NCBI GenBank assembly: GCA_025355955.1
Contig: JANXYP010000200.1
Span: 16,125 to 80,124, forward strand
DNA length: 64,000 nt
Direction of reading: 5' to 3'
Origin: Chloroflexota bacterium
GTDB taxonomy: Bacteria > Chloroflexota > Chloroflexia > QHBQ01
Shown here: positions 5,387 to 62,499 of the stretch, one piece after another
How the letters are laid out: every line of letters starts with the position of its first letter
How positions within the stretch are numbered: position 1 is the first letter of the stretch
Notes under the pieces: model-generated
What the model saw: the letters and a program-made list of their open reading frames with translations, nothing else
Told to the model about the DNA's origin: nothing
Database searches by the model: none
Program-made: the position numbers and the translations under genes

Positions 5387-5518
5387 TAAACAAAGTTTTG
5401 ACGAGGGGTGTAGTTTCCCCTCCCGCCGGGAGGGGTTGGGGTGGGTGCGTGCAGCGCGATGTAGACCCACCCCCTGCCCCTCCCAGCGGGAGGGGAGAAC
5501 CTCAAAACTTAGTTTACA
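5387..5518. mobile_element. MITE-like element family 2: ends taaacaaagttttgacgagg … cctcaaaacttagtttac enclosing a long GC hairpin (gggaggggttggggtgggtgcgtgcagcgcga … gacccaccccctgcccctcccagcgggagggg)
   Basis: Second full copy with an internal duplication at 46778..46990. Fragments at 4591..4628 and 24770..24805. Confidence 0.6.
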
Positions 5519-5712: not shown

Positions 5713-7500
5713 TTGCCAAAGCCTAATCGCAACGAACGCTACGAACGCCTGGCCGCCGAGCAGGGCGGGGTGATCAAGGACTGGGGGGGCAAGATCAGCG
5801 TCGCGCTGGTGTTCCCCAATACCTACTATGTCGCCATGTCCAGCCTGGGCTACCAGGCGGTGTACAGCCTGATGAACGCAGAGCCGGATGTGGTCTGCGA
5901 GCGCGTCTTCCTGCCCGACATTGCCGAGCAGCAGCCCGACGCGCCATTTCCCAAGCCGGTCTCGCTGGAGTCAGGCCGCCCGCTCACCGATTTCGATGTG
6001 GTCGCGGTCAGCGTCAGCTTCGAGCTTGATTACTTCAACATCGTGCGGATGCTCAACGCCGCTAGCATCCCCCTGTTTAGCGACGAGCGTGACGACCGCC
6101 ATCCCTTCCTGATGGTGGGTGGCGCGTGCGCGATTGACAACGCCGAACCGATTGCCCCCTTCTTCGATCTGGTGGTGGTCGGTGAGGCCGAGGCGCTGTG
6201 GCCTGCGATGATTGATACGATGCGGCAGGCCATTCGTGGTGATCGCGAGGCGCTGCGCCAGGCTATGGCTCTCTATCCCGGCCTCTATATACCCGCCTTC
6301 TACGATACCTGGTTTGAGGCCAATGGCCGCTACGGTGGTATCCGCGCCAACTCGCGCCACCCCCGTCCCGACATAGCGTTGCCGATCTCGCGGCAGGGCG
6401 CACGCAACCTCAACGAGTTTGCCACCGTGAGCAAGGTGTTGACCCGCAACACCGAGTTTGGCGATGCCTATCTGATGGAAGTGGCACGCGGCTGTGCCAG
6501 GGGCTGCCGCTTCTGCCTGGCCGGTTTCGCCTTCCTGCCCCAGCGCGACCGTCACGTGCCGTTTCTGCTGGAGCAGGCCAAAGAGGGGCTGAAGTACCGC
6601 GACAAGGTGGGGCTAGTCGGCGCGTCGGTGTCGGATTACCGCTACATCGACGAACTGGTGGTTGGCCTTCGTAAGCTGGGCGCACGCATCAGTATCTCCT
6701 CGATGCGGGCCGATAGCATGACCCCCACGCTAGTGCAAGCGCTGATCGATAGTGGCGCACGCACGCTCACCTTCGCGCCGGAGGCGGCCAGCGAACGCTT
6801 GCGCCGCGTGATCAACAAGCGCCTCAGCTACGATGAGGTGATGGGCGCAACCGACCTGCTGGGCAAGGCGGGCGCACGCAGTATCAAGATGTACTATATG
6901 ATCGGGCTGCCCACGGAGGAACAGTCCGATGTGGAGCAAATCGTCAGCCTCAGCATGGCGGTGAAGAAGCGCATGGACGGACATCATCCGGGCGGCGAGA
7001 TTCAGGTCAGCGTCACTCCATTCGTGCCAAAGAGCCATACCCCCTTCCAGTGGGGCGGGATGTTCCCGCTCGATGTGCTGGAGAACGATGTAAACTATTT
7101 GAAGAAGGAACTGCGCCGCCAGGGTGTCACCTTCAAGATCGAGTCGCCCAAGTGGGTGCGGGTGCAAGGCACTCTGGCGCGGGGCGATCGCAGATTGGCG
7201 AAGGTGCTAGCCTACATGACCGAGGCGGGCAACGTCAGCATGGTAAACTGGCAGCGGGCGCTGGAGCATCACGGCCTCGATCAAGCCTGGTACCTCGATG
7301 CCTACGACGAGGGCGCACCGCTGCCCTGGGGTCATATCGAATCGGGGGTCAGCTTCAGCGCGATGCTGAGGCAATGGAACAAGGCCCACGTCGAAGCCGA
7401 AGACTACACCACCGCCATCCAGTACAAGCCCCGTGCCGAGATTCGCCTTGAACACGCGGTGCGCGAACACGCGAGGTTGGTGGAAGCATCGGCAAGCTGA
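5713..7500 (+). CDS. Radical SAM protein, TIGR03960-like (N-terminal B12-binding-like domain, CxxxCxxC = CARGCRFC)
   Basis: 595 aa. Radical SAM cysteine triad in ARGCARGCRFCLAGF. N-terminus ERYERLAAEQGGVIKDW resembles TIGR03960 proteins. TTG start at 5713. Confidence 0.7.
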   Translation: MPKPNRNERYERLAAEQGGVIKDWGGKISVALVFPNTYYVAMSSLGYQAVYSLMNAEPDVVCERVFLPDIAEQQPDAPFPKPVSLESGRPLTDFDVVAVSVSFELDYFNIVRMLNAASIPLFSDERDDRHPFLMVGGACAIDNAEPIAPFFDLVVVGEAEALWPAMIDTMRQAIRGDREALRQAMALYPGLYIPAFYDTWFEANGRYGGIRANSRHPRPDIALPISRQGARNLNEFATVSKVLTRNTEFGDAYLMEVARGCARGCRFCLAGFAFLPQRDRHVPFLLEQAKEGLKYRDKVGLVGASVSDYRYIDELVVGLRKLGARISISSMRADSMTPTLVQALIDSGARTLTFAPEAASERLRRVINKRLSYDEVMGATDLLGKAGARSIKMYYMIGLPTEEQSDVEQIVSLSMAVKKRMDGHHPGGEIQVSVTPFVPKSHTPFQWGGMFPLDVLENDVNYLKKELRRQGVTFKIESPKWVRVQGTLARGDRRLAKVLAYMTEAGNVSMVNWQRALEHHGLDQAWYLDAYDEGAPLPWGHIESGVSFSAMLRQWNKAHVEAEDYTTAIQYKPRAEIRLEHAVREHARLVEASAS

Positions 7501-9114: not shown

Positions 9115-9137
9115 AGGTTAAAAGTTGAGGGTTGAGG
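9096..9137. repeat. Heptanucleotide tandem repeat ((a/g)gtt(a/g)a(a/g))x6 spanning the stops of two convergent genes
   Basis: agttaaaagttgaaggttgaaggttaaaagttgagggttgag. Confidence 0.85.
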
Positions 9138-10533
9138 TCATTCCGTAGGGGCGAACAACGGTTCGCCCTGGCCCAACTGCCTGATGCCTGATGAAAGTTG
9201 CACATAATTCCTCGCCCCTCAACATATACTCGACCAATGCCAGATTGTGACTCGCACCGATCTTGCGGAAGATGGTCGCCGCTTGCGTAAGCATCTCCCG
9301 CGCTGCCGGGGTGATAGCACCTTCGCGTTGGGCAATCGCTTTGGCATAATCATGGTAATCACGGCCCAGGTCGTAGGCATCACCGCGATGCTTGCTTTGC
9401 ACGATCGCCAGTTGGAAGTTGGCCTCGGCCTGCGGCCAGTCGCCCTGTGTGCCGTAGAAGTGGGCAATGGTCAGATAGAAGTGTTCATGATTCTCGCGGC
9501 CCGGTTGCTGATCGAAGCGGCGCAGCCAGTCAATGTAGTGGCGGGCATGGGCGAACTCACCGGTCGCGGTGTGATATTCCACCATTCGAGCCGCAACTTC
9601 TTTTTTGAGAATAATCGGGGCGGTGGGTTCCTCGAACACCGCGATGGCGGGCGCATAGCTACCCGCCAAATCGCCCATCTCCTGCCGCACCAGACTTAGC
9701 CGCGATAGCGCATATGCCTCGACGATCTTATTGTTGCCCACGCGGGCGGCGCTGAGAGCGCGGTTTAGATACTCCACTGCCTGCTCGAAGTCGCCCGCGC
9801 AGCGATGCACCCCCGCGACGCTAACCAGCGACTGGCTGATGAAGTTCTGGTTTTCGACCTGTGGCAGCAACTCTATTACCCGCTGCGCGTACTGGATGGC
9901 CCGTGAGATGGGGCCAATGTGGATATAGACGTGGCAAAGCAGCCGATATGACAGCATCAGGGTGGTGGGGTCGCCGTGCGCCTCGGCGAACTGGGCGGCC
10001 TTGTTGTAACGGAACAGCGCCTCGTGCATCCGCCCCTCGGTGGTACTGACATTACCGAGGTTGGCCCACAGCCGCGCTGCCAGTTCGCCGCCCGCCAGTC
10101 CTACATGGCGCAGGCCACGCTGATAATACAGGGTGGCCGCGCCGCCAACGCCGCTCACGTACTCGATGTTGCCCAGAATGTTCAAGATTTCGCCGAGCAG
10201 TTGCTTGTCGCCCGCTTCAGATTCGAGCATTACCAGTAGCGGCAGCAACTCCATCTTGGCCTGCTGCATCTCGCCCTGGTAGTAATGAATCAGCCCCTGT
10301 AGCCAGCGCAAACGTGCAGTCAGCAGGGCTGCCTCGGTGCCAAAGTCGGCGCTGGCAAGCTCCGCCTCCACGTTGGCAAGCTGGGCCTGGGCCGCCGCAT
10401 AGTCGCCCCGCTTGATATCAGTCTGAGCGCTATCCAACGTCTGGCGCAACCACACCGCTGCCAGCAAAGCGTCACACTGCTGACAGCGTTGGGCCGAAGC
10501 CGGGTTCTCGGCATTGCAGTTGGGGCAACGCAT
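9118..10533 (-). CDS. TPR-repeat protein with N-terminal zinc-ribbon (MRCPNCNAENPASAQRCQQCDALL)
   Basis: 471 aa. CxxC…CxxC at the N-terminus, multiple TPR-like helices. The C-terminal ~15 aa (GPGRTVVRP…) are translated from a REP-like element at 9146..9170. Confidence 0.6.
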   Translation of the reverse strand: MRCPNCNAENPASAQRCQQCDALLAAVWLRQTLDSAQTDIKRGDYAAAQAQLANVEAELASADFGTEAALLTARLRWLQGLIHYYQGEMQQAKMELLPLLVMLESEAGDKQLLGEILNILGNIEYVSGVGGAATLYYQRGLRHVGLAGGELAARLWANLGNVSTTEGRMHEALFRYNKAAQFAEAHGDPTTLMLSYRLLCHVYIHIGPISRAIQYAQRVIELLPQVENQNFISQSLVSVAGVHRCAGDFEQAVEYLNRALSAARVGNNKIVEAYALSRLSLVRQEMGDLAGSYAPAIAVFEEPTAPIILKKEVAARMVEYHTATGEFAHARHYIDWLRRFDQQPGRENHEHFYLTIAHFYGTQGDWPQAEANFQLAIVQSKHRGDAYDLGRDYHDYAKAIAQREGAITPAAREMLTQAATIFRKIGASHNLALVEYMLRGEELCATFIRHQAVGPGRTVVRPYGMTSTLNF

Positions 10534-14713: not shown

Positions 14714-15562
14714 GTGAACAAATTGGAACATAAACGCACCACCTCAGCGCGGAAACGGTCGGGAGTCGGCGTAGCGCTGATCGCCGCGCTTGGCCTGGTC
14801 GCGCTTCTCGCTGCCTGCGACACAAGCGGTAGCGCAAGCCAGCCCCAGCAGGCGGTGGTATCACAACCGCAGCCGCAAGCGCCAAGCCCGAACAATCCCC
14901 CTAAGATTGCTACTGCCTATCGCCCCGGTGGGCAGGCTACCCCCTATGCTCCGCTGGTCATTCCCCCCGCCCCCGCCCTGCCGCCTGCGGTTGGCGCGGT
15001 GCTACTCGCTGACAGCTTCGCCGACACCCCGATCAGCAACTATACCATCGTTGATCTGGGAGTGGCCCCCGATGCCCGCCCCTCTACCTGGGCGGTACAG
15101 GACGGTATGCTAGCTCAGAACGGAGACGCTGACGGCAACCCCGCCGCCAACGAGACCCTCGCTGTAATCGGCAATGCAGTCTGGACCAACTACAGCGTCG
15201 AGGCTGAAGCCTACTCCGGTGGCAGCCCGCTCGGTTTGGTGGCGCGTTATTCGAAGGCCGGTTTCTACCGCCTGCGGGTCAATCGCAGCACGGTCACGGG
15301 CGCGGGCTGGCTGCTACAACGCTACGACAGTGGCAAGCAAGCCTATACCACCCTTGCCAGCGGCGCGCTCAATAGCGGCTACACCGTTCAGCAGTGGAAT
15401 TACCTCAAGCTGACGGCGCAGGGCAGCACCATCAGCGTCACGATCAACGGCCAGCCTGCGGCCAGCGTCAATGATAGCGCTTACCCAGGCGGCAGTGTTG
15501 GCCTCTACACCGAAGCAACCGGGGCGCGTTTCAGCAACCTGCGCGTCAGCGCACTGCAGTAA
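14714..15562 (+). CDS. Lipoprotein with DUF1080 (LamG-like / 3-keto-disaccharide-hydrolase-like) domain, copy 1
   Basis: GTG start with AGGAGG 8 nt upstream. Lipobox LLAAC. The C-terminal 120 aa (GFYRLRVNRSTVTGAGWLLQRYDSG…FSNLRVSALQ) are typical DUF1080. Confidence 0.65.
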   Translation: MNKLEHKRTTSARKRSGVGVALIAALGLVALLAACDTSGSASQPQQAVVSQPQPQAPSPNNPPKIATAYRPGGQATPYAPLVIPPAPALPPAVGAVLLADSFADTPISNYTIVDLGVAPDARPSTWAVQDGMLAQNGDADGNPAANETLAVIGNAVWTNYSVEAEAYSGGSPLGLVARYSKAGFYRLRVNRSTVTGAGWLLQRYDSGKQAYTTLASGALNSGYTVQQWNYLKLTAQGSTISVTINGQPAASVNDSAYPGGSVGLYTEATGARFSNLRVSALQ

Positions 15563-15585
15563 AATTGGAGAGGAATAGCAACCTA

Positions 15586-18063
15586 ATGTATAAAACTAAA
15601 CTTGCCAGCCGCGCCTTCGTCGGGCTGGTCAGCCTATCCCTGCTGCTAACCTTGAGCGTCTCCTACAGCGCCGCCCAACCCGCCACTGCACCTACCAGCC
15701 CATCCAGCCAGGGCCAGCCCGCCGCGCAATCAGCTAGCCGCCCCGCCTATAGCAACGTGCAGTGGTCAGCGGCGCAAAACATCTCTGGTGGCAATGGCGA
15801 ACTCTATCCTGGCGTGGCGATGAACGCGGGTGAGGCTCAGGTAAACTTCAAGGGTAGTTCTACTCAGGAGATCTACGAGTCCTACAGCAGCGATAACGGC
15901 CACAGCTGGGCGGCACCCACGTATCGCGGCTGCGACAACGGCAGCGCACGGGGCTCGACTGCACCCAGCATCGCCGAAGATGCCAACAAAAATGTCTACA
16001 TGGTGTGGGAGGATTACTGCGGACCCACTCGCCAACTGTACTTCAAGAAGCATGATGCTACATCCAACCAGTGGCAGGCTACCCGTCAGATCGTCAGCTC
16101 CAACAGTAATGGCGGCTCCGTGGCGGTCGGCCCTAATGGGGTGATCCACGTCTCATACATCAATGTGTTTGCCAGCGGGTCTAGCGGCCAGCTCGAATAT
16201 ATCTACTCCACCAATGGCGGTGCCTCCTTCAGCGCCCCCACTGTCCTTACTAACAGCGCTGAGTGGATTAACACTAGCCACATTGCGGTGGATACGCTCA
16301 ACCGCCCCCATATTGTCTGCGAAAAAGGTCCTTCTGGGCGATACAGCATTGTGGCTGAGGACTTCGTCAATGGCGCATGGCACACGACTACGATATATAC
16401 TGGTCGCGGCTACTGGTCGCAAATTGCCGCCAACCACAGTGGCGGAGTAGGCGCCGTCTGGCAGATGAACGATGCGGGGGATCAGATCCTCTACAGCCGC
16501 TGGAATGGCGCAAGCCAGACGTGGGATGCGATTTCCACCCAGGTATCGGTTGACAGTAGCAACAACTATTACCCCACGCTTACATACGACAACCTCGACG
16601 ATGCTTATGTCGTCTGGGGCCAGAGCAGCGGCAGCCCCGGTTCGCAGCAACTGCAGTTCAGCTACGAGCAAAGCATCGGCAATTGGAGCGCCGAGATAAA
16701 TATTCAGAGTACCCGCACCAGCGTAGCAGTGCTGGCTAACTACAACAACAATCTGACCGTCGCCTATCAGTTTGATGGCACGGGCAACTGGGGTATCTGG
16801 TCTAGCTGGCTGCAACTACCGCAGGCAAACTTCACGCCGACTAGCATCGCTACGCCAACCCACACCGCTACGCGGACTAACACGCCTACCAACACTGCCA
16901 CCGCCACCTTCTGCCCGGGCCAGACCTTCACCGATGTGAACTGCTCATTTTGGGCGTTCGGTTACATCAAGGCGATGAACGATGCCAACGTCATCAATGG
17001 CTACAGCGGCGCACAGTGTACTGGCGTACACGTCGGTTCGCCTTGTTACCTGCCAAGCAACCTGGTAACCCGCGCTGAAGTGACCAAGATGCTGGCCCGC
17101 GCCGAGGCCTGGCCGGCCGTTACCGTTACCAGTCCCCACTTTACCGATGTGCCGCCAAATTACTGGGCTTTCCAGTTTATTGAACGAGCGGTTGCGAATG
17201 GCGTGGCCGACGGTCTAAGCGCGCAGCAGTGCCAGGCAGCAGGCGCGACTCCACCCTGCTACTTGCCTAATAGCCCTTTGACCCGCGCCCAGATGACTAA
17301 GTTCGTCTACCGCGCTCATCATCCAGTTCCCTATACGCCAAGCGGGACACAGACATTCACCGATGTGCCGCCCAGCTACTTCGCCTATGGCTACATCGAA
17401 ACTGCCAACCATGATGGCATTGTTACTGGCTACACCTCGCAGCAGTGTACGGCGGCTGGCGCAACCTTCCCTTGCTTCCTGCCCAACCGCAACGTCCACC
17501 GCGATGAAGTGGCAAAGATGGTCAAGAAAATGCTCGACGCGGGCAGCGTTACCTCCACGCCGACTGTCGCGCCGACCTCGACCGCGACCAACACGCCGAC
17601 GAATACAAACACGCCAACGCTGACCAGCACTGCTGTCGCTACCAGCACCAACACGCCCACGCCGACCAGCACCAACACGCCCGCGCCGCCCACCAGCACT
17701 CCGCTGTCGTCTACCAACACCCTTACGCCCGTACCAACCGTCACTGTCACCCCTACCCCTACCATCACTCCAGGGATAGTCAATGTCAACATTGTGGACT
17801 ATGCCTTCAGCCCGCAAACCATCACTGTCACGCTCGGCACGCGTGTAATCTGGACAAACACTGGGACGATGACTCATACTGTCAACTCTGACGATGGCAG
17901 CTCGTTCGCCTCCGGCAACATTGCGCCATCAGGAACCTTCAGCCGTACCTTCACCACCACCGGCACGATCGGCTACCACTGCACTATCCACGGCGGCATT
18001 CATACGGGGATGTACGGTACGGTCGTCGTGCTGGCCGCCGACCACCCTAACGGCACAAATTAG
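15586..18063 (+). CDS. Secreted BNR/sialidase-like beta-propeller protein with three SLH domains and a C-terminal cupredoxin (plastocyanin/azurin-like type-1 copper) domain, copy 1
   Basis: The ORF track starts at 15565 (TTG). ATG at 15586 gives a signal peptide MYKTKLASRAFVGLVSLSLLLTLSVSYSAAQP. BNR motifs (SYSSDNGHSW, YSTNGGASF). SLH repeats (FTDV…WAF…I…A…ITRAE). C-terminal H…C-x2-H-x4-M (YHCTIHGGIHTGM). Confidence 0.7.
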   Translation: MYKTKLASRAFVGLVSLSLLLTLSVSYSAAQPATAPTSPSSQGQPAAQSASRPAYSNVQWSAAQNISGGNGELYPGVAMNAGEAQVNFKGSSTQEIYESYSSDNGHSWAAPTYRGCDNGSARGSTAPSIAEDANKNVYMVWEDYCGPTRQLYFKKHDATSNQWQATRQIVSSNSNGGSVAVGPNGVIHVSYINVFASGSSGQLEYIYSTNGGASFSAPTVLTNSAEWINTSHIAVDTLNRPHIVCEKGPSGRYSIVAEDFVNGAWHTTTIYTGRGYWSQIAANHSGGVGAVWQMNDAGDQILYSRWNGASQTWDAISTQVSVDSSNNYYPTLTYDNLDDAYVVWGQSSGSPGSQQLQFSYEQSIGNWSAEINIQSTRTSVAVLANYNNNLTVAYQFDGTGNWGIWSSWLQLPQANFTPTSIATPTHTATRTNTPTNTATATFCPGQTFTDVNCSFWAFGYIKAMNDANVINGYSGAQCTGVHVGSPCYLPSNLVTRAEVTKMLARAEAWPAVTVTSPHFTDVPPNYWAFQFIERAVANGVADGLSAQQCQAAGATPPCYLPNSPLTRAQMTKFVYRAHHPVPYTPSGTQTFTDVPPSYFAYGYIETANHDGIVTGYTSQQCTAAGATFPCFLPNRNVHRDEVAKMVKKMLDAGSVTSTPTVAPTSTATNTPTNTNTPTLTSTAVATSTNTPTPTSTNTPAPPTSTPLSSTNTLTPVPTVTVTPTPTITPGIVNVNIVDYAFSPQTITVTLGTRVIWTNTGTMTHTVNSDDGSSFASGNIAPSGTFSRTFTTTGTIGYHCTIHGGIHTGMYGTVVVLAADHPNGTN

Positions 18064-18779: not shown

Positions 18780-19610
18780 TTGTCAAATCAGAAGTCAAGC
18801 AATAGGGTTGCACGGGTTTGGGTTGGCCTCGCGCTAATTAGTGCGGCGCTGATCATGTCCGCTTGCAGCAGCGGCGGTACCGCCGCACAACCGGGTCAGG
18901 CGGTGGTGTCCCAACCGCAGCCGCAAACGGTAAGCTCGAACAATCCACCCAAGGTAGCTACTGCCTACCGCCCCGGTGGGCAGGCTACCCCCCAGCCTCC
19001 CATCGTCATTCCACCTGCCCCCGCCCTGCCCCCCAGCAGCGGCACCATCCTACTCGCCGATAACTTTGCCAACACCCTGATCAGCAACTACACCATTGTT
19101 GACATTGGCGCTGGCTCCGATGCCCTCCCCTCTAGCTGGCAGGTGCAGAACGGGATGCTCGCCCAGAATGGCGATAGCGACGGCAACCCTGCCTTCTACG
19201 ATACCTACGCCCTCACCGGCGATGCCGCCTGGACCAACTACAGCGTGGAGGGCGAAGCCTACTCTGGCGGCAGCCCGTTCGGCCTGGTAGCTCGCTACTC
19301 GAAGGCCGGTTTCTACCGCCTGCGGGTCAATCGCAGCACGGTCACGGGCGCGGGCTGGCTGCTACAACGCTACGACAGTGGCAAGCAAGCCTACACCACC
19401 CTTGCCAGCGGCGCGCTCAATAGCGGCTACACCGTTCAGCAGTGGAATTACCTCAAGCTGACGGCGCAGGGCAGCACGATTAGCGTAACCATCAACGGCC
19501 AGCCCACGGCCAGCGTCAGCGATGCCACCTACGCGGTGGGCAGCGTTGGCTTCTATGCCGAGGCTAGCGGGGCGCGCTTCAGCAACCTGCGCGTCAGCGC
19601 ACTGCAGTAG
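18780..19610 (+). CDS. Lipoprotein with DUF1080 domain, copy 2 (paralog of 14714..15562)
   Basis: TTG start with AGGAGG 8 nt upstream. Lipobox IMSAC. About 190 nt (≈19290..19480) are almost identical to 15240..15430. Confidence 0.65.
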   Translation: MSNQKSSNRVARVWVGLALISAALIMSACSSGGTAAQPGQAVVSQPQPQTVSSNNPPKVATAYRPGGQATPQPPIVIPPAPALPPSSGTILLADNFANTLISNYTIVDIGAGSDALPSSWQVQNGMLAQNGDSDGNPAFYDTYALTGDAAWTNYSVEGEAYSGGSPFGLVARYSKAGFYRLRVNRSTVTGAGWLLQRYDSGKQAYTTLASGALNSGYTVQQWNYLKLTAQGSTISVTINGQPTASVSDATYAVGSVGFYAEASGARFSNLRVSALQ

Positions 19611-19633
19611 AATTGGAGAGGAATAGCAACCTA

Positions 19634-22096
19634 ATGTATAAAGCTAAACTTGCCAGCCGCGCAGTCGCCGGTCTGGTTGCAATATCCCTGCTAATGACGG
19701 TGGGCGTTACCTACAGCGCTGCCCAGCCGGTCACGGCAACCAATAACCCGCCCGGCCCGTCCCAACCTGCGGTCAAGTCGGGGGCGCAATCCGCCGTTAA
19801 GTCCGGGGCGCAACCTGCATACACCAATGTGCAGTGGTCGGATGCCCAGAACGTATCCGGCGGTAGCGGTGAACTCTACCCTGGCCTGGCGATGAACGGC
19901 GGCGAAGCCCAGATAAACTTCAAGGGCGGCTCTCCCCAGGAGATTTTCGAGTCTTATAGCACCGATAACGGTCACACCTGGTCTGGACCCAGGTATCGGG
20001 GCTGCGACGGTGGTGCCGTGGCAGGCTCGACCGCGCCCAGCATTGCTGAAGACATCCACCTCAACGTCTATATGGTGTGGGAAGACTACTGCGGTAGCAC
20101 TCGCCAGTTGTACTTCAAGAAGTACGATGTTATCACCAACCAGTGGCTGGCTACCCGCCAGATCGTCAGCTCCAACACTAATGGCGGTTCAGTGGCGGTT
20201 GGCGCTGATGGGGTAATCCACATCTCCTTCATCAATGTGTTCGCCAGTGGGAGCAGCGGCCAGGTCGAGTACATCTACTCCACCAATGGTGGCAACAACT
20301 TCAGCAGCCCCACCGTTCTTAGCGACAGTAAGACCTGGGTGGTCACCACCCACGTTGCGGTGGACACCCTCAACCGCCCCCACATCGTCTACGACAAAGG
20401 CCCCAGTGGACGCTACAGCATTATCGCCAGCGATCTGATCAATGGCGCATGGCACGCGACTTCGATATACAGCGGGCGCGGTTTTTGGCCGAAGATTGCC
20501 GCTGACCACAATGGCGGCGTGGGTGCGGTCTGGCAGATGAACGATGCCGGGGTGCAGATACTCTATAGCCATTTTGATGGCACCAGCCAGCAGTGGGATG
20601 GGGTTCCCACCCAGATTTCGGTTGATAGTAGCAACAACTATTACCCTGCGCTCACCTACGACAACCTCGACGATGCCTATGTGGTTTGGGGTCAGAGCGA
20701 CAGCAGCCCCGGCTCTCAGCATCTGCAGTTCAGCTACGAGTACAGCCCTGGGGTCTGGAGTCCCGAGATCAACCTTCAGGGTACCCGTACCAGCGTGCCG
20801 GTGCTGGCTAACTACAACAACAATCTGACGCTAGCCTACCAGTTCGACGGCACAGGCAACTGGGGTATCTGGTCCAGTTGGGCGCAACTGTCGCAGCAGA
20901 CTAATACTCCGACCAACACCCCAACCAATACTTATACGCCCACGCCCACCAACACCCCCACCAACACCCCTACCTTCACGCCGACGTTTACGCCCACCCC
21001 TTGCGCTGACGGCTCGTTGTTCGCCGATGTCTGCCAGGGCTACTGGGCTTACCCCTACATCCAGGCACTGGGGCTACGCGGTATCGTCAGCGGCCAGGGC
21101 GGATACTACTACCCCGGTCGGCTAATCACTCGCGCCGAACTAACCGCAATTATGGTGCGTTCGCAGAGCTGGTCGCTGATTACACCGCCGACCCCCAGCT
21201 TCAGCGATGTACCAATTAGCTACTTTGCCTACAGCTACATAGAAACCGCCCTTGCCCATCACGCGATCAGCGGCTACACCGACAACATCAGCTCGCATCC
21301 CTGCGCCGATGCTGGCGTGGGTTCACCCTGCTTCCTGCCCAACAATTACGTGAAGCGTGATGAGACCACTGTGATCATCGTCAGGGCCAGCGGCTTCCCG
21401 CTAATCACCCCGCCGAACCCGAGCTTCACTGACGTGCCGACAACCTACTGGGCGTACAGCGCAATCGAAACCGCGCACGCTCGTGGCATCGTCTCCGGTG
21501 TAGGTGGTGGCCTGTTCCGCCCCGGAGACCACGCCAAGCGCGATCAGATGGCGAAGATCGTATACCTGGCCCTGCCCGCCATCACTAGCATCGTTCCCAG
21601 TTCGGCGCAGGCAGGTAGCAACACCCTGGTGACCATTACTGGACGCAACTTCGGCGACCCCCAGACCATCAGCAGCACGCTGCAGGTCAATGGGATAACC
21701 ATGACGATCGTCAGTTGGCACGACACCGTGATTAACTTCACCATTCCAGCTAACACGCCGTCCACGCCGAGTCCGGCAACCATCAATTTGACCTGGAACA
21801 ACAAGCTAGCCTTCATTGAGAACAACACCACCTTCACCGTGCTGCCCGCGCCGACCGCTACACCAGGCCCGCCGACCAGCACACCAGGTGGCCCCACCAA
21901 CACGCCGCTGCCGACCGTTACCAGCACGGCAACGGCAACGGTCACACCGGGCGGCCCAACTAACACCCCGCTGCCAACCGTTACCAGCACCGCAACGGTC
22001 ACACCGGGCGGCCCAACTAACACCCCGGTAGCTACCAACACGCCGCTGCCGACTACGACCGCAACCGCAACCCTTGCTGCTGAACCGAACAAGTAG
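19634..22096 (+). CDS. Secreted BNR/sialidase-like protein with three SLH domains and a C-terminal IPT/TIG domain, copy 2
   Basis: Same spacer and start context as copy 1 (ttggagaggaatagcaacctaATG). BNR motifs, SLH repeats, then an IPT/TIG-like segment (ITSIVPSSAQAGSNTLVTITGRNFG…) instead of a cupredoxin. Confidence 0.7.
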   Translation: MYKAKLASRAVAGLVAISLLMTVGVTYSAAQPVTATNNPPGPSQPAVKSGAQSAVKSGAQPAYTNVQWSDAQNVSGGSGELYPGLAMNGGEAQINFKGGSPQEIFESYSTDNGHTWSGPRYRGCDGGAVAGSTAPSIAEDIHLNVYMVWEDYCGSTRQLYFKKYDVITNQWLATRQIVSSNTNGGSVAVGADGVIHISFINVFASGSSGQVEYIYSTNGGNNFSSPTVLSDSKTWVVTTHVAVDTLNRPHIVYDKGPSGRYSIIASDLINGAWHATSIYSGRGFWPKIAADHNGGVGAVWQMNDAGVQILYSHFDGTSQQWDGVPTQISVDSSNNYYPALTYDNLDDAYVVWGQSDSSPGSQHLQFSYEYSPGVWSPEINLQGTRTSVPVLANYNNNLTLAYQFDGTGNWGIWSSWAQLSQQTNTPTNTPTNTYTPTPTNTPTNTPTFTPTFTPTPCADGSLFADVCQGYWAYPYIQALGLRGIVSGQGGYYYPGRLITRAELTAIMVRSQSWSLITPPTPSFSDVPISYFAYSYIETALAHHAISGYTDNISSHPCADAGVGSPCFLPNNYVKRDETTVIIVRASGFPLITPPNPSFTDVPTTYWAYSAIETAHARGIVSGVGGGLFRPGDHAKRDQMAKIVYLALPAITSIVPSSAQAGSNTLVTITGRNFGDPQTISSTLQVNGITMTIVSWHDTVINFTIPANTPSTPSPATINLTWNNKLAFIENNTTFTVLPAPTATPGPPTSTPGGPTNTPLPTVTSTATATVTPGGPTNTPLPTVTSTATVTPGGPTNTPVATNTPLPTTTATATLAAEPNK

Positions 22097-27953: not shown

Positions 27954-28012
27954 AGCCTCCTTCAGGTTTTGGGATTTGGTGTAGGGGCGAACCCTTGTTC
28001 GCCCTCACGTTG

Positions 28013-31000
28013 CTACGGTTGCATCAGCCGGTACAGCACCCTGGCGATTTCGGCGCGGGTGATGTTGGCGTTGGGGTGGAACTGGCTGCCCGCATAGCCG
28101 CTGAACACTTGGTGGTAGGCGGCGGCCTCGATGTATATATACGCCCAGTAGTCGGGCGGCACATCGCTGAACAGCGGTGGAATCGGCGTGTTGGTGGCCC
28201 AGCCTTGCGCTTTCACCAGCATCCTGGCCGCCTCAGCGCGGCTAATGGTACGCACCGGGTTGAACATATGGTTGCCGTCGCCGCTGACCACTCCCCGCGC
28301 CGCCAGCGTCTCCACCCAGGGGTAGGCCCAGCTCCAGGGCAGCACATCGGCGAAGGTAGGTGCGGTAGGCGCGATTTGCGGCCAGCCCTCCGCCAGAGTA
28401 AGCAGCTTGGCAAACTCGGCGCGGCTGGTGGGGTTGTTGGGCCGGTAGGTGTTGTCGAGATAGCCGCTGACCACGTTCTGGCAGTAGAGGTACTGGATGT
28501 ACTGGTAGGCCCAGTAGCCAGTTGGCACGTCGTCGAGGTGGAAGTGGCAGGGGCGCGGCGTATCGCTCGGCTCCGGGGTGGGATTGCCGTAGCGGATGGT
28601 GACGGGAATGCCAATCAGTTGCGCCGCATTGCTGGGGCCGAGGAACGCCTGACCCTGCCAGATGCCGCTGGTCATGCCCGGCTTATTCCAGGCCAGGGTG
28701 AGGCCAACCTGCGAACCGGCCGGGATGGTGCCGCTGATCACTGCTGGTGTAAAGCTGAGATCGGTGCCGCCAATGGTGTTGATGGTCAGGTCGAAGTGGG
28801 TGCCAGCGCTGGGAATGTTGGTGCCGTCCACGCGGATGCGGTAGTCGCCATCCAGCGCCGGGCTGATGCGGATGAATTCGTCGCCGCTCGGCCCGGTCGA
28901 TGCGGCGATCTCGTTCCAGCGGTTGTTGAAGAAGCGATCGAGGAAGAGGTCGATGTCGGCATCGTTGTCGGCGTGGGTAGTGAGTTCGAGTGCGGCGGTG
29001 TTGGTTAGCGTCAGGTTGTCGAACCAGGTGCCATACTGTACCACGTACAGGTTGCGTAGGGTGCTTTGCTGGCTGAGGCCGAAGGCGCTGGTGCGTAGGC
29101 CATTGGGCAGGGTCAGGCCAGTGGTGAGCGTAATCGGCACGCTGCCGCTGCTGGAGTTGGTGCTGACATCCACGCTGGCGCTGCTGAGGTTGACGATGCC
29201 CAGCGTGTCGGTGAACGGCTCGGCGGGGGCGCGCCCGGCGTAGCCGACGTTGTGGTGGACGATCTCGTGCGCCGCCTGCACGTTGTTGAGGTGGGTGGAG
29301 ACCCACTCCTCGGTGGCGCCGGTCACGCTCTGGAAGGGGAAGATGCCGCCGCCGATCCAGGAATTGACGCTGCCGCCCAGCAGCCACTCAGGGTAGGGGC
29401 CGAACAGGTTGGGGTAGGTGGTAGAGAAGAAGTCCCAGGGCGCGGGGCCAAGCACCACCGTATCTATATCGGTGGGATAGTGATTCCATTTGGTGTTGAC
29501 CCAGAGGAAGTCGTTGCCGCCCACCTGCTGGGTGTTGTTGACAAAGAAATTGCGCCACTCGCCCGAGTCGGGCCGCCAGTTCCAGTCAATCGCGCCGCGC
29601 ACCTGCCCGCTATCGAAGATGCTGGCTGAGGGTGGCGTGCCGCCCAGGGTGGTGTCAAGTGCGGGAGCAACCACGTTGGCAGCGATGGGGATAGTCTGGG
29701 TGTAGGCAACGTGGCCGGGGCTGGGATGGGTGGCTACCGTGAGCGCGCCCTCATAGGTGCCGGGTGGCTGGCTAGATGGCGCGGTGAAACTGGCGACGAA
29801 GGTTGCCTGGCCATGCGCCGGCACGATAAGCTGCGTCGCGCTCAAATTGCTGACCATCGGCCATGCCTGGTGGTGGTAGAAGGTGGCTTTCAGGTTGATG
29901 GTGGTGGTGAGGATGTCGCCCGCATCGAAGCGGTGCTGCAAGCCGACGAAGAAGCCATCCTTGACCCGCTGCAAGGGCTGCTGCACCCACATCTGCAAGA
30001 TAGTGCCTGCATTATAGGCGTAGGCGAAGCGGTTGAACTCTCCGCTCTGATACTCGCCGTCGTTGACCACCCCATTGTGGTTGTCGTCGTGCCAGACGAT
30101 GCCGTCGTGGTTTTGGTCGTGCCAATCGTAGGCCAGCAGGCTCCAACTGCTCTGATTGCTGAGATAGAGCGAGGTGGGGGTAATCACGCTAAACTGCTCA
30201 TAGGGGAAGTAGGCGGTAAGCTGCACCAGGTCGGTGCCGAGCGGGATCTGGTTGCTGAGATTCCAGAGGTAATCGGGGCGGCTGAAGTTGGCGGGACTCT
30301 CATTGGTGATGCTGGTGGAAACCGACCAATCGAGGCTGCCGGTTGCCACCAGGTTGTCGCTGCCCAGATTGGCGGTGAGCGGTGCGGGGCTGGGGTTATT
30401 CAGGGTGAAGCTGCGAGTGAGGGTCAGGCCGGGAGTGATGAAGCCGATCGCGCCGGGGCTGCTGCTACCCACGTTCCAGGCTGAGGGGCTGGTGTAGAGG
30501 CCCGCATTTGCGGCGGCAATGTCCACCGTGCGACCAGCGTCTACCTGGCCTGCGCCCTGGGCGAACACATCGTAGTTGAGGTTCTTCGCCCCCGCTTTGA
30601 GGATGTCCTTCGCTACCTCGCCATCGGGGTAGTAGCCGTGCGCCGACTTGTATGCCTGATAGAGCAGCGCGGTTATGCCCGCCGCTTCGGGCGTAGACAT
30701 ACTGGTGCCGCCCCACAACACCCAGTCGTTCCAACCATCGTGGCCGCCGGAGGGAGCCAGCTCGTTAATCGGGATGTCACCGCTGCCCCACGCGCCCACC
30801 GATACAATATCCGGCTTGGGCTGGCCGCTGGCGGCGGGGCCGCGATTAGACCAGGGTTGCACATCGTTGAACTTGATCTGGTCGGTGCCGCTAATCGGGT
30901 CGAAGGTGGTGGTTTCGCCGTACTGGGTGGATGCGCCCACACTGATGACGTAGGGTGAGGTAGCCGGTGGCGTTACCGTGCCGTAGCCGGGGCCGCCGTT

Positions 31001-32803
31001 GCCGCTGGCGACCAGCACGGCGGTGTTGGGCGCGTACTGGCGCAGCAGCGCAGACAGATAGCGCGATTGGAAGTCCCAGCCATTATCCGCGCCGCCGGAG
31101 AAGCCGAAGCTGAGGCTGACAACCTGGGCATCGTCGCCGCTGCCGGGGATGCCATCGTAACCGTAGGTCATCAGCATATAAGCGTCGTAGATAGTCTGTA
31201 CGCTCTGGTAGATATTGCCGATGGCGATCAGTTTAGCGTGCGGCGCGGTGCCTTGCACCATACCGCCCACGCCCGCGGGTTTGTAGGGGGGATAGCCGTC
31301 ATGATGCCCGTCAATCACTCCTTGCGCCACAATCGAAGAGGCGCACAGGGTGCCGTGATCCTGGCCGTAGCCAAAGCTGCCCATCATCGCCACCAGGCTG
31401 CCATTGGCGGGCGGCAACTCGGCGTAGAGCCAGTCGCTGGCGGGGATGGGGGTGTGGCCGTCGGCGACGAAGTAGAGCATCCCGGTACTGCGGTCGGCGT
31501 AGCCGTCACCATTGTAGTCGCGGGTGGCAACCTCGTGACCCTTGTACAACGGGTCATCGTCGCGGAAGTCGTGGTTGTTGTTGAGATCCACGATCACAGT
31601 GTCGTACACACCTGCGGTGTGCGCGTCTACCACCAGCACAGCGGGATACTCGTGGTAGGTATCGTAGACCAGGTTCTCGTCGGGGTGGATGCCGATGTGG
31701 TAAATACCGCTCTTGCTGGTGCCGGGCAGAGTGTAGGTGTGGCTGATGGGAGAGAGGCCCAGGTCGCTCTCCGCTGCGGTGGTGAACACTGCGGTCGCGC
31801 CGCTGACGGTCGTGCTGGTGTCAATATACCACGAACCCCAGCCAGTGATCGCGCTGCTGACGTTGTGGCTGATGCCGTAGTTGTAAAGCTCCATGCTCCA
31901 AGGGTCGTAGGCTAGCGGCCAGCCATAGTATGGCGAGTTGGGGTTGTCGTCGCGGGCATAGGTGTTCTGCAAATCGGGATGACCGAAGTCCACGCCGGTA
32001 TCCAGCAGCGCGACCTTCACTCCGTCGCCTTGGTAGCCTGCGTTCCAGGCGCTATGCACGTTCATTACGTCGAGCGCGTGCCAACTGTCGGGCGACCCGG
32101 ATGAGTTTTGAGATTTGAGATTTGAGTTTTGAGTTGGGCTATTGGCTGCTGAGGATGTCTTATCTGCGGTTGTAGGGGCGAACCGTTGTTCGCCCTGCTG
32201 AAGCAGCACGGACCCCTTCCCAACCTCCCCTGGTGGGGGAAGGGTTTTGCTTTGAGTGCCGAGGGTGGGGCGTTGGGGCAACGATGGGGGATTGGGTTTC
32301 GCTGACCCCGCTCTGCAATTTGCAATCTGCACTCCGCAATCCGGCAGCGGTGGCACTTCGACCGCGCTGTTATCCATCACCTGCACCACATTGGCAGGGA
32401 CAGCCAGCTTCAACACCTGGCTGGCGGCTACCGCGCCGAAGTTGAAGACCAGGCCGTTAGGGTCGGGGCGGCGGGAGACACGGTTCTGCAGCGGCACGCT
32501 CTGAGGCAACGCGCCGACACTGACCACGATGACGCTGAGACGCTCACTATCCTGGGCAGCGGCGGCCTTGTCGCGCAGCATCGGGCTGACTTTCTGTTTG
32601 AGCGGGTCGCTGGCGGCGGTGACTTGACCCAACTTCTGCGCGGCTGGCACAGCGGGGGCGTGCTGCATATCGGCAGGGGCGGGCGGCTGGGGCGGCAATG
32701 GCCCATAAGGGGCCGACTGGGCTAGCAACGCGGGCAGCATCAGAGCCAACAGCAGGGGTATGATAAAGCGTACCCGGCGGTGAGAGGTGGTAGGCAGTTT
32801 CAA
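28013..32803 (-). CDS. S8 (subtilisin-like) serine peptidase, ~1597 aa: signal peptide, I9-like propeptide, repeat-encoded linker, catalytic domain (D-T-G / HGT / GTSMSTP), large beta-rich region, three C-terminal SLH domains
   Basis: The ORF track starts at 33154 inside family-3 repeats. TTG at 32803 (GGAG 8 nt upstream) gives MKLPTTSHRRVRFIIPLLLALMLPALLAQSA. Catalytic triad motifs ALLDTGVDFGHPD, HGTLCAS, GTSMSTPEAAG. SLH-type repeats at the C-terminus. Confidence 0.7.
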   Translation of the reverse strand: MKLPTTSHRRVRFIIPLLLALMLPALLAQSAPYGPLPPQPPAPADMQHAPAVPAAQKLGQVTAASDPLKQKVSPMLRDKAAAAQDSERLSVIVVSVGALPQSVPLQNRVSRRPDPNGLVFNFGAVAASQVLKLAVPANVVQVMDNSAVEVPPLPDCGVQIANCRAGSAKPNPPSLPQRPTLGTQSKTLPPPGEVGKGSVLLQQGEQRFAPTTADKTSSAANSPTQNSNLKSQNSSGSPDSWHALDVMNVHSAWNAGYQGDGVKVALLDTGVDFGHPDLQNTYARDDNPNSPYYGWPLAYDPWSMELYNYGISHNVSSAITGWGSWYIDTSTTVSGATAVFTTAAESDLGLSPISHTYTLPGTSKSGIYHIGIHPDENLVYDTYHEYPAVLVVDAHTAGVYDTVIVDLNNNHDFRDDDPLYKGHEVATRDYNGDGYADRSTGMLYFVADGHTPIPASDWLYAELPPANGSLVAMMGSFGYGQDHGTLCASSIVAQGVIDGHHDGYPPYKPAGVGGMVQGTAPHAKLIAIGNIYQSVQTIYDAYMLMTYGYDGIPGSGDDAQVVSLSFGFSGGADNGWDFQSRYLSALLRQYAPNTAVLVASGNGGPGYGTVTPPATSPYVISVGASTQYGETTTFDPISGTDQIKFNDVQPWSNRGPAASGQPKPDIVSVGAWGSGDIPINELAPSGGHDGWNDWVLWGGTSMSTPEAAGITALLYQAYKSAHGYYPDGEVAKDILKAGAKNLNYDVFAQGAGQVDAGRTVDIAAANAGLYTSPSAWNVGSSSPGAIGFITPGLTLTRSFTLNNPSPAPLTANLGSDNLVATGSLDWSVSTSITNESPANFSRPDYLWNLSNQIPLGTDLVQLTAYFPYEQFSVITPTSLYLSNQSSWSLLAYDWHDQNHDGIVWHDDNHNGVVNDGEYQSGEFNRFAYAYNAGTILQMWVQQPLQRVKDGFFVGLQHRFDAGDILTTTINLKATFYHHQAWPMVSNLSATQLIVPAHGQATFVASFTAPSSQPPGTYEGALTVATHPSPGHVAYTQTIPIAANVVAPALDTTLGGTPPSASIFDSGQVRGAIDWNWRPDSGEWRNFFVNNTQQVGGNDFLWVNTKWNHYPTDIDTVVLGPAPWDFFSTTYPNLFGPYPEWLLGGSVNSWIGGGIFPFQSVTGATEEWVSTHLNNVQAAHEIVHHNVGYAGRAPAEPFTDTLGIVNLSSASVDVSTNSSSGSVPITLTTGLTLPNGLRTSAFGLSQQSTLRNLYVVQYGTWFDNLTLTNTAALELTTHADNDADIDLFLDRFFNNRWNEIAASTGPSGDEFIRISPALDGDYRIRVDGTNIPSAGTHFDLTINTIGGTDLSFTPAVISGTIPAGSQVGLTLAWNKPGMTSGIWQGQAFLGPSNAAQLIGIPVTIRYGNPTPEPSDTPRPCHFHLDDVPTGYWAYQYIQYLYCQNVVSGYLDNTYRPNNPTSRAEFAKLLTLAEGWPQIAPTAPTFADVLPWSWAYPWVETLAARGVVSGDGNHMFNPVRTISRAEAARMLVKAQGWATNTPIPPLFSDVPPDYWAYIYIEAAAYHQVFSGYAGSQFHPNANITRAEIARVLYRLMQP

Positions 32804-32934
32804 AGTAGGTCTCCAATCCAGAGGGGGAAGAAGGGGCGGTTCGCAGCTACTAAACCCAGTATAAAACAGCGAGGACGGGTTGTCAATCAGTGTGTTGCAA
32901 GGGGTGCAATTCACAGTTTTGCGATCATCGGGGC

Positions 32935-33120
32935 GGATGGCGTTCGCCCCTACGTCGACATTGGTGCTGGCGATGGGGATTGATGCGCTTCGAGCGGGCG
33001 GGCAGCCGCCCGCCCCTACCCCAACATTCGTGCTTTCGATGAGCATTGGTGCGCTTCGAGCGGGCGTATGCCATGCGCCCCTACACCAACATTGACGCTC
33101 ATGATGGGCATTGATGCGCC
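32935..33120. repeat. Three tandem ~60-bp family-3 repeats (cattggtgcgcttcgagcgggcg(g/t)… gcccctac), each ending in a REP-like GGGCG…CGCCCCTAC hairpin
   Basis: Homologous to the 2-copy array at 40463..40598 (…gcgcttcagcagggcgtatgccatacgcccctacgggtaaatccgc). Confidence 0.7.
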
Positions 33121-33192
33121 GCACTGACGCACAAAGGTATTGGCCAAGGGCCATTCTCAGCAGCTACGTATGCAACTACCAACAGCGTTTCA

Positions 33193-39605: not shown

Positions 39606-39750
39606 AGATTGCAGATCGTAGATTTAAGATTGCAGATTATGGCCCAAACTTATGCCACCTACTCCCATATTCTGAATTGCAAGTTGTAAATGGCAGCCGG
39701 GTATTCACCCCACTAAGCTGCAATCTGCAATCTTAAACCTGCAATCATTT
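39594..39750. repeat. Two inverted arrays of heptamers (agattgc-like x~6 at 39594..39640; gcaatct x4 at 39718..39748) flanking an 80-bp spacer
   Basis: Direct reading. The arrays are reverse complements of each other and overlap the DUF2203 stop. The same 7-mer occurs at 59240..59274. Confidence 0.7.
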
Positions 39751-40337: not shown

Positions 40338-40462
40338 TAGGGGCGGCATAAATCCCGCCCTGGTGAAGCGTGTCACTAGCAAAAAAGCCGCTGCACCCCA
40401 TCCGATTATCCGTTTATTCGCTGTCACAATCCGCTGGCTTACCCGTTTCGCGCCCAGCATTA

Positions 40463-40598
40463 ACAGCTTGCGATAGGCATTGATGCGCTTCAGCAGGGCG
40501 TATGCCATACGCCCCTACGGGTAAATCCGCAACAGCTTGCGATAGGTATTGGTGCGCTTCAGCAGGGCGTATGCCATACGCCCCTACGGGTAAATCCG
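40463..40598. repeat. Two tandem 68-bp family-3 repeats (aacagcttgcgataggcattgatgcgcttcagcagggcgtatgccatacgcccctacgggtaaatccgc)
   Basis: Each unit contains the palindrome GGGCGTATGCCATACGCCC + CTAC. Confidence 0.8.
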
Positions 40599-40723
40599 CT
40601 TGTTTTCAGACAGCCTCTTAAACCAAGCTTAACCCTGCCTCTCCATATGTGAAAACTAAAGCGCAAAAATAAGCAATTGATAGCTGGTTGGCGAAGGATG
40701 CAATCGGTCGCGTCTTTGTATCT

Positions 40724-46334: not shown

Positions 46335-46770
46335 TCATTCCAATTAGCCAACGAGATGCTATAGTTCTGTAGGGGCGAACCGCTGTTCGCCCTGGCTCAA
46401 TCTATCGCGGCACCATCGATAATAGGAATAAGGCAAGCTCTCCCCCCACCAACCTACCCACAGGGAACCCCACAAGGGGGTTTCCCCGCTGGGGAGAGGC
46501 TTTTTGGCTTATCGTATTAGCCAACGAGATGCTATAGTTCTGTAGGGGCGAACCGCTGTTCGCCCTGGCTCAATCTATAGCGGCACCATCGCTAATGGGA
46601 ATAAGGCAAGCTCTCCCCTCACCAACCTACCCACAGGGAACCCCACAAGGGGGTTTCCCCGCTGGGGAGAGGCTTTTTGGCTTATCGTATTAACCAACGA
46701 GATGCTATAGTTCTGTAGGGGTGAACCGATGTTCGCCCTGGCTCAATCTATAGCGGCACCATCGCTAATG
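46335..46770. repeat. About 2.5 tandem copies of a ~180-bp composite repeat. Each unit is a family-1 REP-like core (gtaggggcgaaccgctgttcgccctgg) plus a terminator-like hairpin (ctctcccc…ggggagaggcttttt).
   Basis: Units start at ~46335, ~46517 and ~46688 (partial). Confidence 0.8.
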
Positions 46771-46777
46771 GGTATCG

Positions 46778-46990
46778 CAAACAAAGTTCTGATGGCGAGG
46801 GTGTAGTTTCCCCTCCCACCGGGAGGGGTAGGGGTGGGTGCGTGCAGCGCGACTCGGACCCACCCCCAGCTTGATTGATGCTGTGCTGGGTGGAATCTAT
46901 CTGCGTGTCAAAGTGGGTGCGTGCAGCGCGACTTGGACCCACCCCCAGCCCCTCCCGGTGGGAGGGGAGAACATCAGGACTTTGTTTATC
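46778..46990. mobile_element. MITE-like element family 2 (second copy, with internal duplication of the gtgggtgcgtgcagcgcgac…gacccacccccagc arm)
   Basis: Ends acaaagttctgatggcgagggtgtag … gggagaacatcaggactttgtttatc match 5387..5518. Confidence 0.6.
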
Positions 46991-55790: not shown

Positions 55791-55925
55791 GACGGACCTC
55801 CGAGAAGGTAGCAGGTAGTGGGTAGAAGGTAGAATGTGGTGGCTGGCTGGTGAAGTATCGATGCCTCTATTATAGCGACAAGTGGGGGTGTGGGCAAGAG
55901 GGTGCAATCCATCAAGCTCTTTGCT

Positions 55926-58329: not shown

Positions 58330-58440
58330 TGAGCGTTGGGTGCCAACGCAGGAATAATGCAAAAAGCCCCCAGCGGGGGTTGGGGGAATGCCACCTCGCC
58401 GCAAAAAGCCCCCAGTGGGGGTTGGGGGAGAAATCCCGAA
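58330..58440. repeat. Two tandem ~45-55-bp family-4 repeats containing the hairpin cccccagcggggg / gggggttggggg
   Basis: caaaaagcccccagcgggggttgggggaatgcc… caaaaagcccccagtgggggttgggggagaaatc… The same family occurs in inverse orientation at 62500..62640. Confidence 0.7.
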
Positions 58441-62480: not shown

Positions 62481-62499
62481 GGCCGCGATGAACCATGCT

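Follow-up and report, generated by a model that had tools for sequence, protein, structure and literature searches.

A single secreted, wall-anchored S8 subtilase contains, in the segment joining its pro-domain to its catalytic domain, in-frame translations of repeat families that recur across the surrounding genome. The gene lies on a 64,000-nt stretch of contig JANXYP010000200.1 from a Chloroflexota bacterium (Chloroflexia; assembly GCA_025355955.1), and we refer to that whole analysed stretch as the window. The segment holding the repeats is probably a disordered and disposable linker that tolerates genome-wide elements and is filtered only for an open frame. An earlier sequence-only reading of this DNA had described three repeats within the linker, and its observation was mostly right: two of the three elements were verified and one more was found, whereas a hairpin was not verified. 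In-frame translation of the repeats within one protein is borne out by a single open reading frame (ORF) and by the orthologous linkers recovered, 14 of 14 of which carry pro-domain and catalytic domain in one frame. The protein is laid out as follows.

28013..32803, minus strand: coding sequence of the S8 subtilase (secreted, SLH-anchored, pyrolysin-like), 1596 aa, with a TTG start at 32803 and its stop codon at 28013..28015.
32711..32803, minus strand: signal-peptide-like N-terminus MKLPTTSHRRVRFIIPLLLALMLPALLAQSA, read off the translation and aligning with the N-termini of orthologues.
32363..32611, minus strand: folded pro-domain, protein residues 65-147, ferredoxin-like alpha/beta, with an AlphaFold predicted local distance difference test (pLDDT) score of 91-97.
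32090..32350, minus strand: disordered hypervariable linker, residues 152-238 (~87 aa), pLDDT <50, without codon-usage signal.
32078..32092, minus strand: PDSWH motif, the first conserved and well-folded residues of the catalytic domain, with pLDDT >90 from here.
30524..32089, minus strand: S8 catalytic domain with large insertions, assigned by Pfam, with Asp268 (32000..32002), His483 and Ser701 and invariant catalytic motifs.

The frame is open on the minus strand over 28013..33154, and TTG 32803, which has GGAG 8 nt 5' of it, is the likely start, giving a protein one residue shorter than the 1597 aa of the sequence-only reading. Pfam assigns Peptidase_S8 (1e-29) and three SLH repeats (SLH 2e-35). 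Full-length orthologues with aligned N-termini share 45-55% identity and come from uncultured Chloroflexia; in a 13-sequence alignment the P, S and W of PDSWH are invariant. In an AlphaFold model built from a 46-sequence alignment (residues 28-780, mean pLDDT 80.9), the linker corresponds to model residues 125-211 and the confident catalytic fold begins at protein residue 239; Foldseek matches of the catalytic domain include Tk-SP, Vpr, KP-43 and fervidolysin. Codon-usage log-odds, which are +0.4 to +0.8 on both sides of the linker, fall to about zero in all three frames over 32353..32085.

Given this intergenic-like composition and repeat content, with arrays at both ends, the stretch could instead be an intergenic spacer between a small secreted gene resembling a pro-peptide and a separate catalytic gene starting at ATG 32065, left open by chance or through a mis-join at a repeat. 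A database gene call does begin there: protein P0001 (1350 aa, 100% identical to the window) starts at ATG 32065, on an independent contig, L001, that begins exactly at the core of the repetitive extragenic palindromic (REP) element described below. Because L001 breaks inside the REP, however, the start of P0001 is an artefact of the contig end. The invariant PDSWH and the first folded catalytic residues lie upstream of ATG 32065, whose Met is not conserved and which no Shine-Dalgarno sequence precedes, and a product made from this codon would carry SLH wall anchors yet no signal peptide. In all orthologues, moreover, the frame is continuous, and in relatives the same protein begins with an orthologue of the N-terminal part encoded in the window. 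The sequence-only reading had itself named an internal start codon 3' of 32100 as grounds for giving up the linker; the position of PDSWH and the unconserved Met argue against such a start. We therefore rejected an internal start, and with it two genes, on the evidence of the orthologues and the structure model, and regard this already largely refuted arrangement as extremely improbable.

Four elements lie within the linker, and a further copy of one of them lies just past the end of the gene.

32312..32341, minus strand: heptamer array B, GATTGCA-type on the coding strand (TCTGCAA), 4.3 units with 78% matches (Tandem Repeats Finder, TRF), encoding DCGVQIANCR.
32214..32245, minus strand: imperfect C/G-rich palindrome (the 'terminator-like hairpin'), encoding LPPPGEVGKG, with a T-run on the antisense (+) strand.
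32171..32197, plus strand: GTAG-tagged REP palindrome, tGTAG-GGGCGAAC-CGTT-GTTCGCCC-tg, with the minus-strand reading QQGEQRFAPT.
32102..32135, minus strand: heptamer array A, CTCAAAA/CTCAAAT on the coding strand, 4.9 units with 92% matches (TRF), encoding PTQNSNLKSQNS.
27985..28004, minus strand: another REP core, outside the gene as is usual for this family and 9 nt 3' of the protease stop codon.

The peptides quoted in the sequence-only reading (TLPPPGEVGKGS, LLQQGEQRFAPT and PTQNSNLKSQNS) are what the frame encodes, and the REP-like core it pointed to is real. The window contains 19 matches to the core, GGGCGAACNNNNGTTCGCCC, where 0.02 would be expected; the in-gene core occupies 32176..32195, and with its flanks (32171..32197) it is identical at 27 of 27 positions to the copies at 2415, 8155, 58497 and 60905. 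Its 8-bp stem (GGGCGAAC/GTTCGCCC) and 4-nt loop fold at -14.6 kcal/mol (z -2.45). Of the 19 copies, 13 have CTAC, which is GTAG on the other strand, after the core; the copy in the protease gene (tGTAGGGGCGAAC...) is one of them. Eighteen copies are intergenic or at ORF edges, leaving a single one inside a gene. That the core encodes the same QGEQRFAP peptide elsewhere, as had been claimed, is correct formally, but the other copies coding for it do so only in short open stretches (11-114 codons) of intergenic DNA. When the linker peptide was compared with a set of 5.8 billion proteins, in which this organism is poorly covered, no candidate shared three 5-residue words with it; the REP-encoded peptide thus appears to be absent from other predicted proteins, within that poor coverage of the organism. 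The core was likewise found in 0 of the 164 other loci fetched.

The REP copies in the window stand singly or are repeated in direct tandem at periods of 37, 46 and 173 nt; they do not show an inverted-dimer organisation like that of bacterial interspersed mosaic elements (BIMEs). The clusters at 250..395, 60808..60925 and 46343..46772 are of this direct type, unlike the inverted dimers typical of REPs and BIMEs. Among the 39 predicted ORFs of the window (64 kb only), none matched Y1_Tnp, the domain sought as a sign of a REP-associated tyrosine transposase (RAYT). Two further tandem repeats, at 32971..33119 (65 nt, 2.3 copies) and 40462..40599 (69 nt, 2.0 copies), have a common left flank, GGCATTGATGCGCTTC.AGC.GGGCG, and hold different GTAG-tagged palindromes (GGGCGGG-AAGCCA-CCCGCCC-CTAC and GGGCGTAT-GCC-ATACGCCC-CTAC), so that several REP subfamilies seem to be built on one frame in this genome. 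The in-gene REP and the palindrome of 40462..40599 also have a GCTTCAGCAGGGCG flank in common. A peripheral case of translation occurs at 9118..9200 on the minus strand, where a short heptamer repeat and a REP core are translated before the stop codon in the C-terminal tail of a TPR protein (…FIRHQAVGPGRTVVRPYGMTSTLNF*).

Array A, the heptamer array of the sequence-only reading, is also real. It ends a few codons before the catalytic domain, is interrupted by A, T, T, A unit variants, has a unit also found in the intergenic array 3842..3872 and is identical in L001. Array B, directly 3' of the pro-domain, had been missed and is the fourth element of the linker; its family includes the arrays at 59240..59272 and 39718..39746, and an array like it occupies the same place in orthologue L005. 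In total the window holds 13 arrays of at least 3.5 units (3.6-5.7 units each), and all but the two in the linker adjoin a start or a stop. For example, the array at 55803..55834 ends 13 nt 5' of an ATG with a Shine-Dalgarno sequence, the first codon of a lipoprotein-like signal peptide, and several others begin a few bases from a stop codon. Head-to-tail arrays of few units at many loci, mostly at gene boundaries, are thus what the window contains. On a rough gene map drawn from codon usage and checked with Pfam, the remaining REP cores and arrays of at least 3.5 units all fall between genes or at the edge of an ORF, and the protease linker is the only site in the 64 kb with these elements deep inside a gene. 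In some intergenic regions (39606..39638/39718..39746 and 63414..63438/63485..63515), an array is accompanied at a distance of 50-80 nt by one of the reverse-complementary unit, and such inverted pairs could form long hairpins.

The C/G-rich palindrome did not hold up as a repeat. The fold of 32214..32245 is no better than that of shuffled sequences (z -1.7 and -1.4 on the two strands, where 13 and 21 of 200 shuffles, respectively, reached its stability), and no second copy was found in the window. Termination of the protease transcript would not be expected from it, because the T-run is antisense. It loosely resembles the CTCCCCCAACCCCCGCTGGGGGCTTTTTGC family at 58367, 58407, 62531 and 62606, sharing CCCAACC..CTGG.GGGG..TTTTGC, but we did not accept it as a member, as several indels would be needed and the fold is not significant. 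The four CTCCCCCAACCCCCGCTGGGGGCTTTTTGC copies themselves (58361..58428 and 62487..62633) are terminator-like, two of them lying inside a 75-nt tandem duplication between divergent genes. Another small hairpin family, CCCCTCCC-GGT-GGGAGGGG, has three copies with conserved flanks (5420..5440, 46813..46833 and 46944..46964). Rfam and tRNA scans of the window gave no matches.

We compared the linker DNA of 14 further lineages with that of the window, making 15 in all. The orthologous linkers cannot be aligned with one another; measured between motif boundaries that are the same for all, they are 58-76 residues long, whereas the linker in the window has 96. Heptamer arrays of at least 3.5 units, all of them in frame, were found in the linkers of nine of the 15 lineages (the window included). 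Across lineages, 13 arrays fell in 2.85 kb of linker and two in the 56.1 kb of remaining coding sequence, a 128-fold difference in density (binomial p 7e-16, which is optimistic as the lineages are not independent). The sequence-only reading had suggested an alignment of orthologues to see whether the linker is absent from them; it is present and in frame throughout, with arrays in most lineages, but the sequences are unalike and the REP is confined to this genome. The orthologous linkers carry the following arrays.

L010 linker: AATCCAA x4.7 (IQNPKSKIQNP).
L004 linker: TCAGGGG x4.6 and CAATCCG x4.7.
L014 linker: TCAGGGG x4.7 and AACTCAA x4.7.
L005 linker: GATTGCG x4.4 and TCCGCAA x5.4.
L018 linker: CAATCCG x4.9.
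L013 linker: GGGGTCG x7.1.
L077 linker: CTCAAAC x4.4, at the same site as array A of the window.

The AACTCAA array of L014 is related to array A and is also at its site. In the remaining six lineages no array exceeded the threshold, L009 having only degenerate ones at a laxer threshold, and the closest complete orthologues, L002 and L015, are among those with no linker array. All linker arrays are in a stop-free orientation; in the L009 linker, whose unit GTAGGGA contains TAG, the array has decayed at the point where perfect repeats would create an in-frame stop. The two arrays outside the linkers are both from L009, at 5794..5858, where GACGATG x4.1 and ATCGTCC x4.1 make a perfect inverted pair with an 8-nt spacer; the pair is read in frame as part of a variable loop deep in the protein (…PDDGRWTMDDGISIVHRPSSIVQH…). 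At 5437..5489 of L010, a 7.6-unit AGTAGGC array encodes the last residues of the orthologue P0008 (…VGSGQRAVGSGQ*) and includes its stop codon. Near the homologous place in L077, GGGGCGAACACCG might be a decayed half of the REP, but it is in a different frame and the local alignment is unreliable.

Closely related linkers show how the arrays change. The proteins of L004, L014 and L016 are 88-90% identical, and their first array is equal in length with different units (ATCAGGC vs GTCAGGG); at the second array site, L014 is longer than L016 by exactly 21 nt, or three units, and L004 has another heptamer. The closest relative, L006 (JBBRMT010000328.1, metagenome-assembled genome La1_metabat2.069, 92% identity), is on a contig that starts at residue 245, just past the linker, and a metagenome scan gave no relative closer than 48%. 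The contigs L001 and L006, which come from the same or closely related organisms, begin at the REP core and at residue 245, respectively; the repeats are evidently where assemblies of this lineage break, so that gene calls are truncated.

The sequence-only reading had gone on to propose array A as a contingency locus, in which slipped-strand mispairing by one unit would shift the frame and toggle a surface protease. Its arithmetic is right: the heptamer unit is not a multiple of three, and gain or loss of a single unit would bring a stop after residue 243 or 252 (within ~30 codons), leaving signal peptide, pro-domain and linker. Surface-exposed proteins are the usual targets of phase variation, and length changes at this site do occur over evolutionary time. 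Known switches such as the CTCTT repeats of Neisseria opa and the tetranucleotide tracts of Haemophilus, however, are long perfect tracts with copy-number polymorphism between sibling cells or strains. Array A is like these loci as a non-triplet tandem repeat in the 5' part of a surface-protein gene where slippage by one unit truncates the product, and unlike them in that it is short, broken by two unit variants and invariant in L001. Copy number was equal in three independent pairs of assemblies, namely the window and L001, L010 and L086 (99.98% DNA identity), and L004 and L087 (99.88% DNA identity), all compared at the level of the consensus, where rare minority variants could escape. Furthermore, arrays of the same size lie at gene boundaries genome-wide and are not specific to the protease, the 14 orthologous linkers are all in frame, and the sole indel among close relatives is the three-unit step described above. 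Taken together, the short interrupted tract, the invariant copy number and the lack of any out-of-frame orthologue leave a switch unsupported, and we judge it very unlikely.

A tolerant linker accounts for these observations through a simple sequence of steps. The ~87-residue segment between the two domains would be an unstructured spacer, cut off together with the pro-peptide during autocatalytic maturation; subtilases generally lose such a spacer with the pro-peptide as they mature. We infer that the linker of this protease is removed in the same way and that the inserts are neutral. If the linker is removed with the pro-peptide, its sequence would be free to drift and to take up repeat families. 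Its amino-acid sequence would barely matter, and the sole constraint on the DNA would therefore be to remain open and in frame. The spacer could then evolve like intergenic DNA, accumulating the GTAG REP, two heptamer families and perhaps the C/G-rich hairpin, while selection would discard variants that introduce stops or shift the frame, so that arrays would persist only if stop-free and would grow or shrink in three-unit (21-nt) steps. This reading matches the proposal that intragenic REPs are neutral in linkers and loops (PMC3733652) and what has been found for translated heptamers (PMC4679880).

Several points weigh against a purely tolerant linker. Across lineages, array density in the linker is 4.6/kb, compared with ~1.3/kb in a rough estimate for intergenic DNA (11 arrays in the ~8.8 kb of the window outside predicted ORFs), and in several lineages the arrays abut PDSWH, a regularity of position that pure neutrality would not bring. 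Removal of the linker at maturation is assumed from other subtilases, the low pLDDT may partly reflect missing alignment signal in the linker, and the hairpin is not established as a repeat element. In addition, the part of the window upstream of the REP rests on one assembly, since L001 starts in the REP.

The excess over intergenic density and the recurrence right beside PDSWH (in the window and in L077, L010, L004, L005, L014 and L018) would be expected if the linker repeats were retained for a function, which we think unlikely. At the protein level they could set the length of a spacer or supply protease-sensitive processing sites; at the level of RNA or DNA they could bind a heptamer-recognising factor, impose a translational pause between the domains or, for GGGGTCA-type arrays, form G-quadruplexes. 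Several arrays are perfect (100% matches) and therefore young or homogenised, and in L004, L014 and L016 the units of the first array change together without altering its length. Published proposals of regulatory roles for arrays beside start codons, and the preference of heptamer families for about four units (PMC4679880, PMC4692102), point the same way. However, six of 15 lineages have no array above threshold, including L002 and L015; the units differ between lineages, such that no common peptide or RNA motif is conserved; and the REP and the hairpin are both confined to this genome. There is, in our view, a small chance that the heptamer arrays found where pro-domain and catalytic domain meet in these uncultured Chloroflexia are a maintained feature, either a low-rate phase switch or an RNA or DNA signal coupling translation or secretion of the two domains. 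Were this so, it would explain why arrays recur by PDSWH at a density above that of intergenic DNA.

Both kinds of repeat have counterparts in other bacteria, and the linker is a further example of phenomena already described, intragenic REPs and heptamer satellites. The sequence-only reading had likened the insertions to Rickettsia palindromic elements (RPEs), palindromic elements reportedly described in Rickettsia by Ogata et al. in 2000. These are selfish palindromic DNA that survives in coding genes through in-frame insertion at tolerant surface or linker positions, and the classical RPE-1 is ~100-150 nt long and lies in frame in many unrelated genes. The analogy stands in principle, as a selfish palindrome tolerated in frame, but membership does not: the linker REP is a 27-nt GTAG element without sequence relationship to RPEs, and just one of the 19 copies in the window is gene-internal. 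The intragenic GTAG REPs of Di Nocera, De Gregorio and Rocco (2013, PMC3733652, in which RPEs are also mentioned) are likewise GC-rich, GTAG-tagged stem-loops of 20-40 nt, high in copy number and mainly extragenic with occasional copies within ORFs; such copies encode about a dozen extra residues, judged probably neutral in flexible linkers or loops, and GTAG repeats are reported there from Chloroflexi. In contrast to that study, the REP here is one of several unrelated repeat types in one linker, and the copies in the window are single or in direct tandem rather than head-to-head dimers, with no RAYT gene visible in 64 kb.

The short tandemly repeated repetitive (STRR) sequences of cyanobacteria are further heptamer tandem arrays. 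The arrays described here share with them, and with those of PMC4679880, PMC4692102 and PMC6749651, a size of 2-6 units (often about four) and a scattered distribution, mostly in intergenic DNA near starts and stops, along with occasional translation at the periphery of an ORF in a stop-free orientation. TAACTGA arrays (PMC4679880) and GGGNATC arrays (PMC4692102) are mostly intergenic with rare peripheral ORF cases, and translated arrays are tolerated at protein peripheries when their orientation is free of stops (PMC4679880). Within the Chloroflexi, Chloroflexus aurantiacus is rich in heptamer-derived satellites of the type GATAGRA (PMC6749651). Unlike all of these, the present arrays have different units and lie well inside a long ORF, in the linker between two domains, where they recur across a protein family of uncultured Chloroflexia.

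The identity of the domain before the linker is less certain than its position. The sequence-only reading called it I9-like; position and a weak resemblance of fold support this in part, but Inhibitor_I9 (PF05922) gave no Pfam match at E<=10 for the N-terminus in the window or for those of four orthologues. Pro-subtilase structures (ProN-Tk-SP, 3afg; pro-Tk-subtilisin, 2e1p; fervidolysin, 1r6v) align with the protease model over 715-754 columns, from the N-domain onward, compared with ~540 columns for mature subtilases. For the isolated N-domain (pLDDT 89.6) all fold matches were non-significant (best E 0.12), the weak ones including the pro-peptides of CspB, Tk-SP, cucumisin and Tk-subtilisin at template modelling (TM) scores of 0.39-0.50. 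The N-domain is thus probably a pro-domain, judging by its position and general fold in the model, although membership in I9 is not proven. Like the named pro-subtilases and the pyrolysin group, this protease has a signal peptide and a small alpha/beta pro-domain followed by the S8 domain, and the pro-forms align with its model over pro-domain and catalytic domain. Unlike them, the family has a spacer of ~58-96 residues between the two, and the protease lacks a Pfam Inhibitor_I9 match and is anchored through C-terminal SLH repeats. The surroundings of the gene add one candidate signal.

32886..32858, minus strand: promoter-like TTGACA-17-TATACT, an 11/12 consensus match only, ~55 nt 5' of the TTG start.

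Two more SLH-domain proteins (BNR/cupredoxin-like at 15478..18063 and TIG-domain at 19568..22096) are encoded ~6-12 kb past the 3' end of the protease gene, and the region around the protease encodes several wall-anchored surface proteins.

The linker provides no evidence for a new regulatory mechanism. For annotation and assembly it offers a practical lesson, in that one gene call was truncated to 1350 aa and contigs end in the REP, and low-complexity peptides such as IQNPKSK or NPQSAIR in proteins of Chloroflexia are translated satellites, not domains. Uncultured Chloroflexia are also added to the organisms in which heptamer satellites and GTAG REPs are documented. The linker is a clean natural case of a coding segment evolving like intergenic DNA, in which repeats normally kept out of genes pile up in a spacer that is probably discarded and the only visible constraint is to stay open and in frame.

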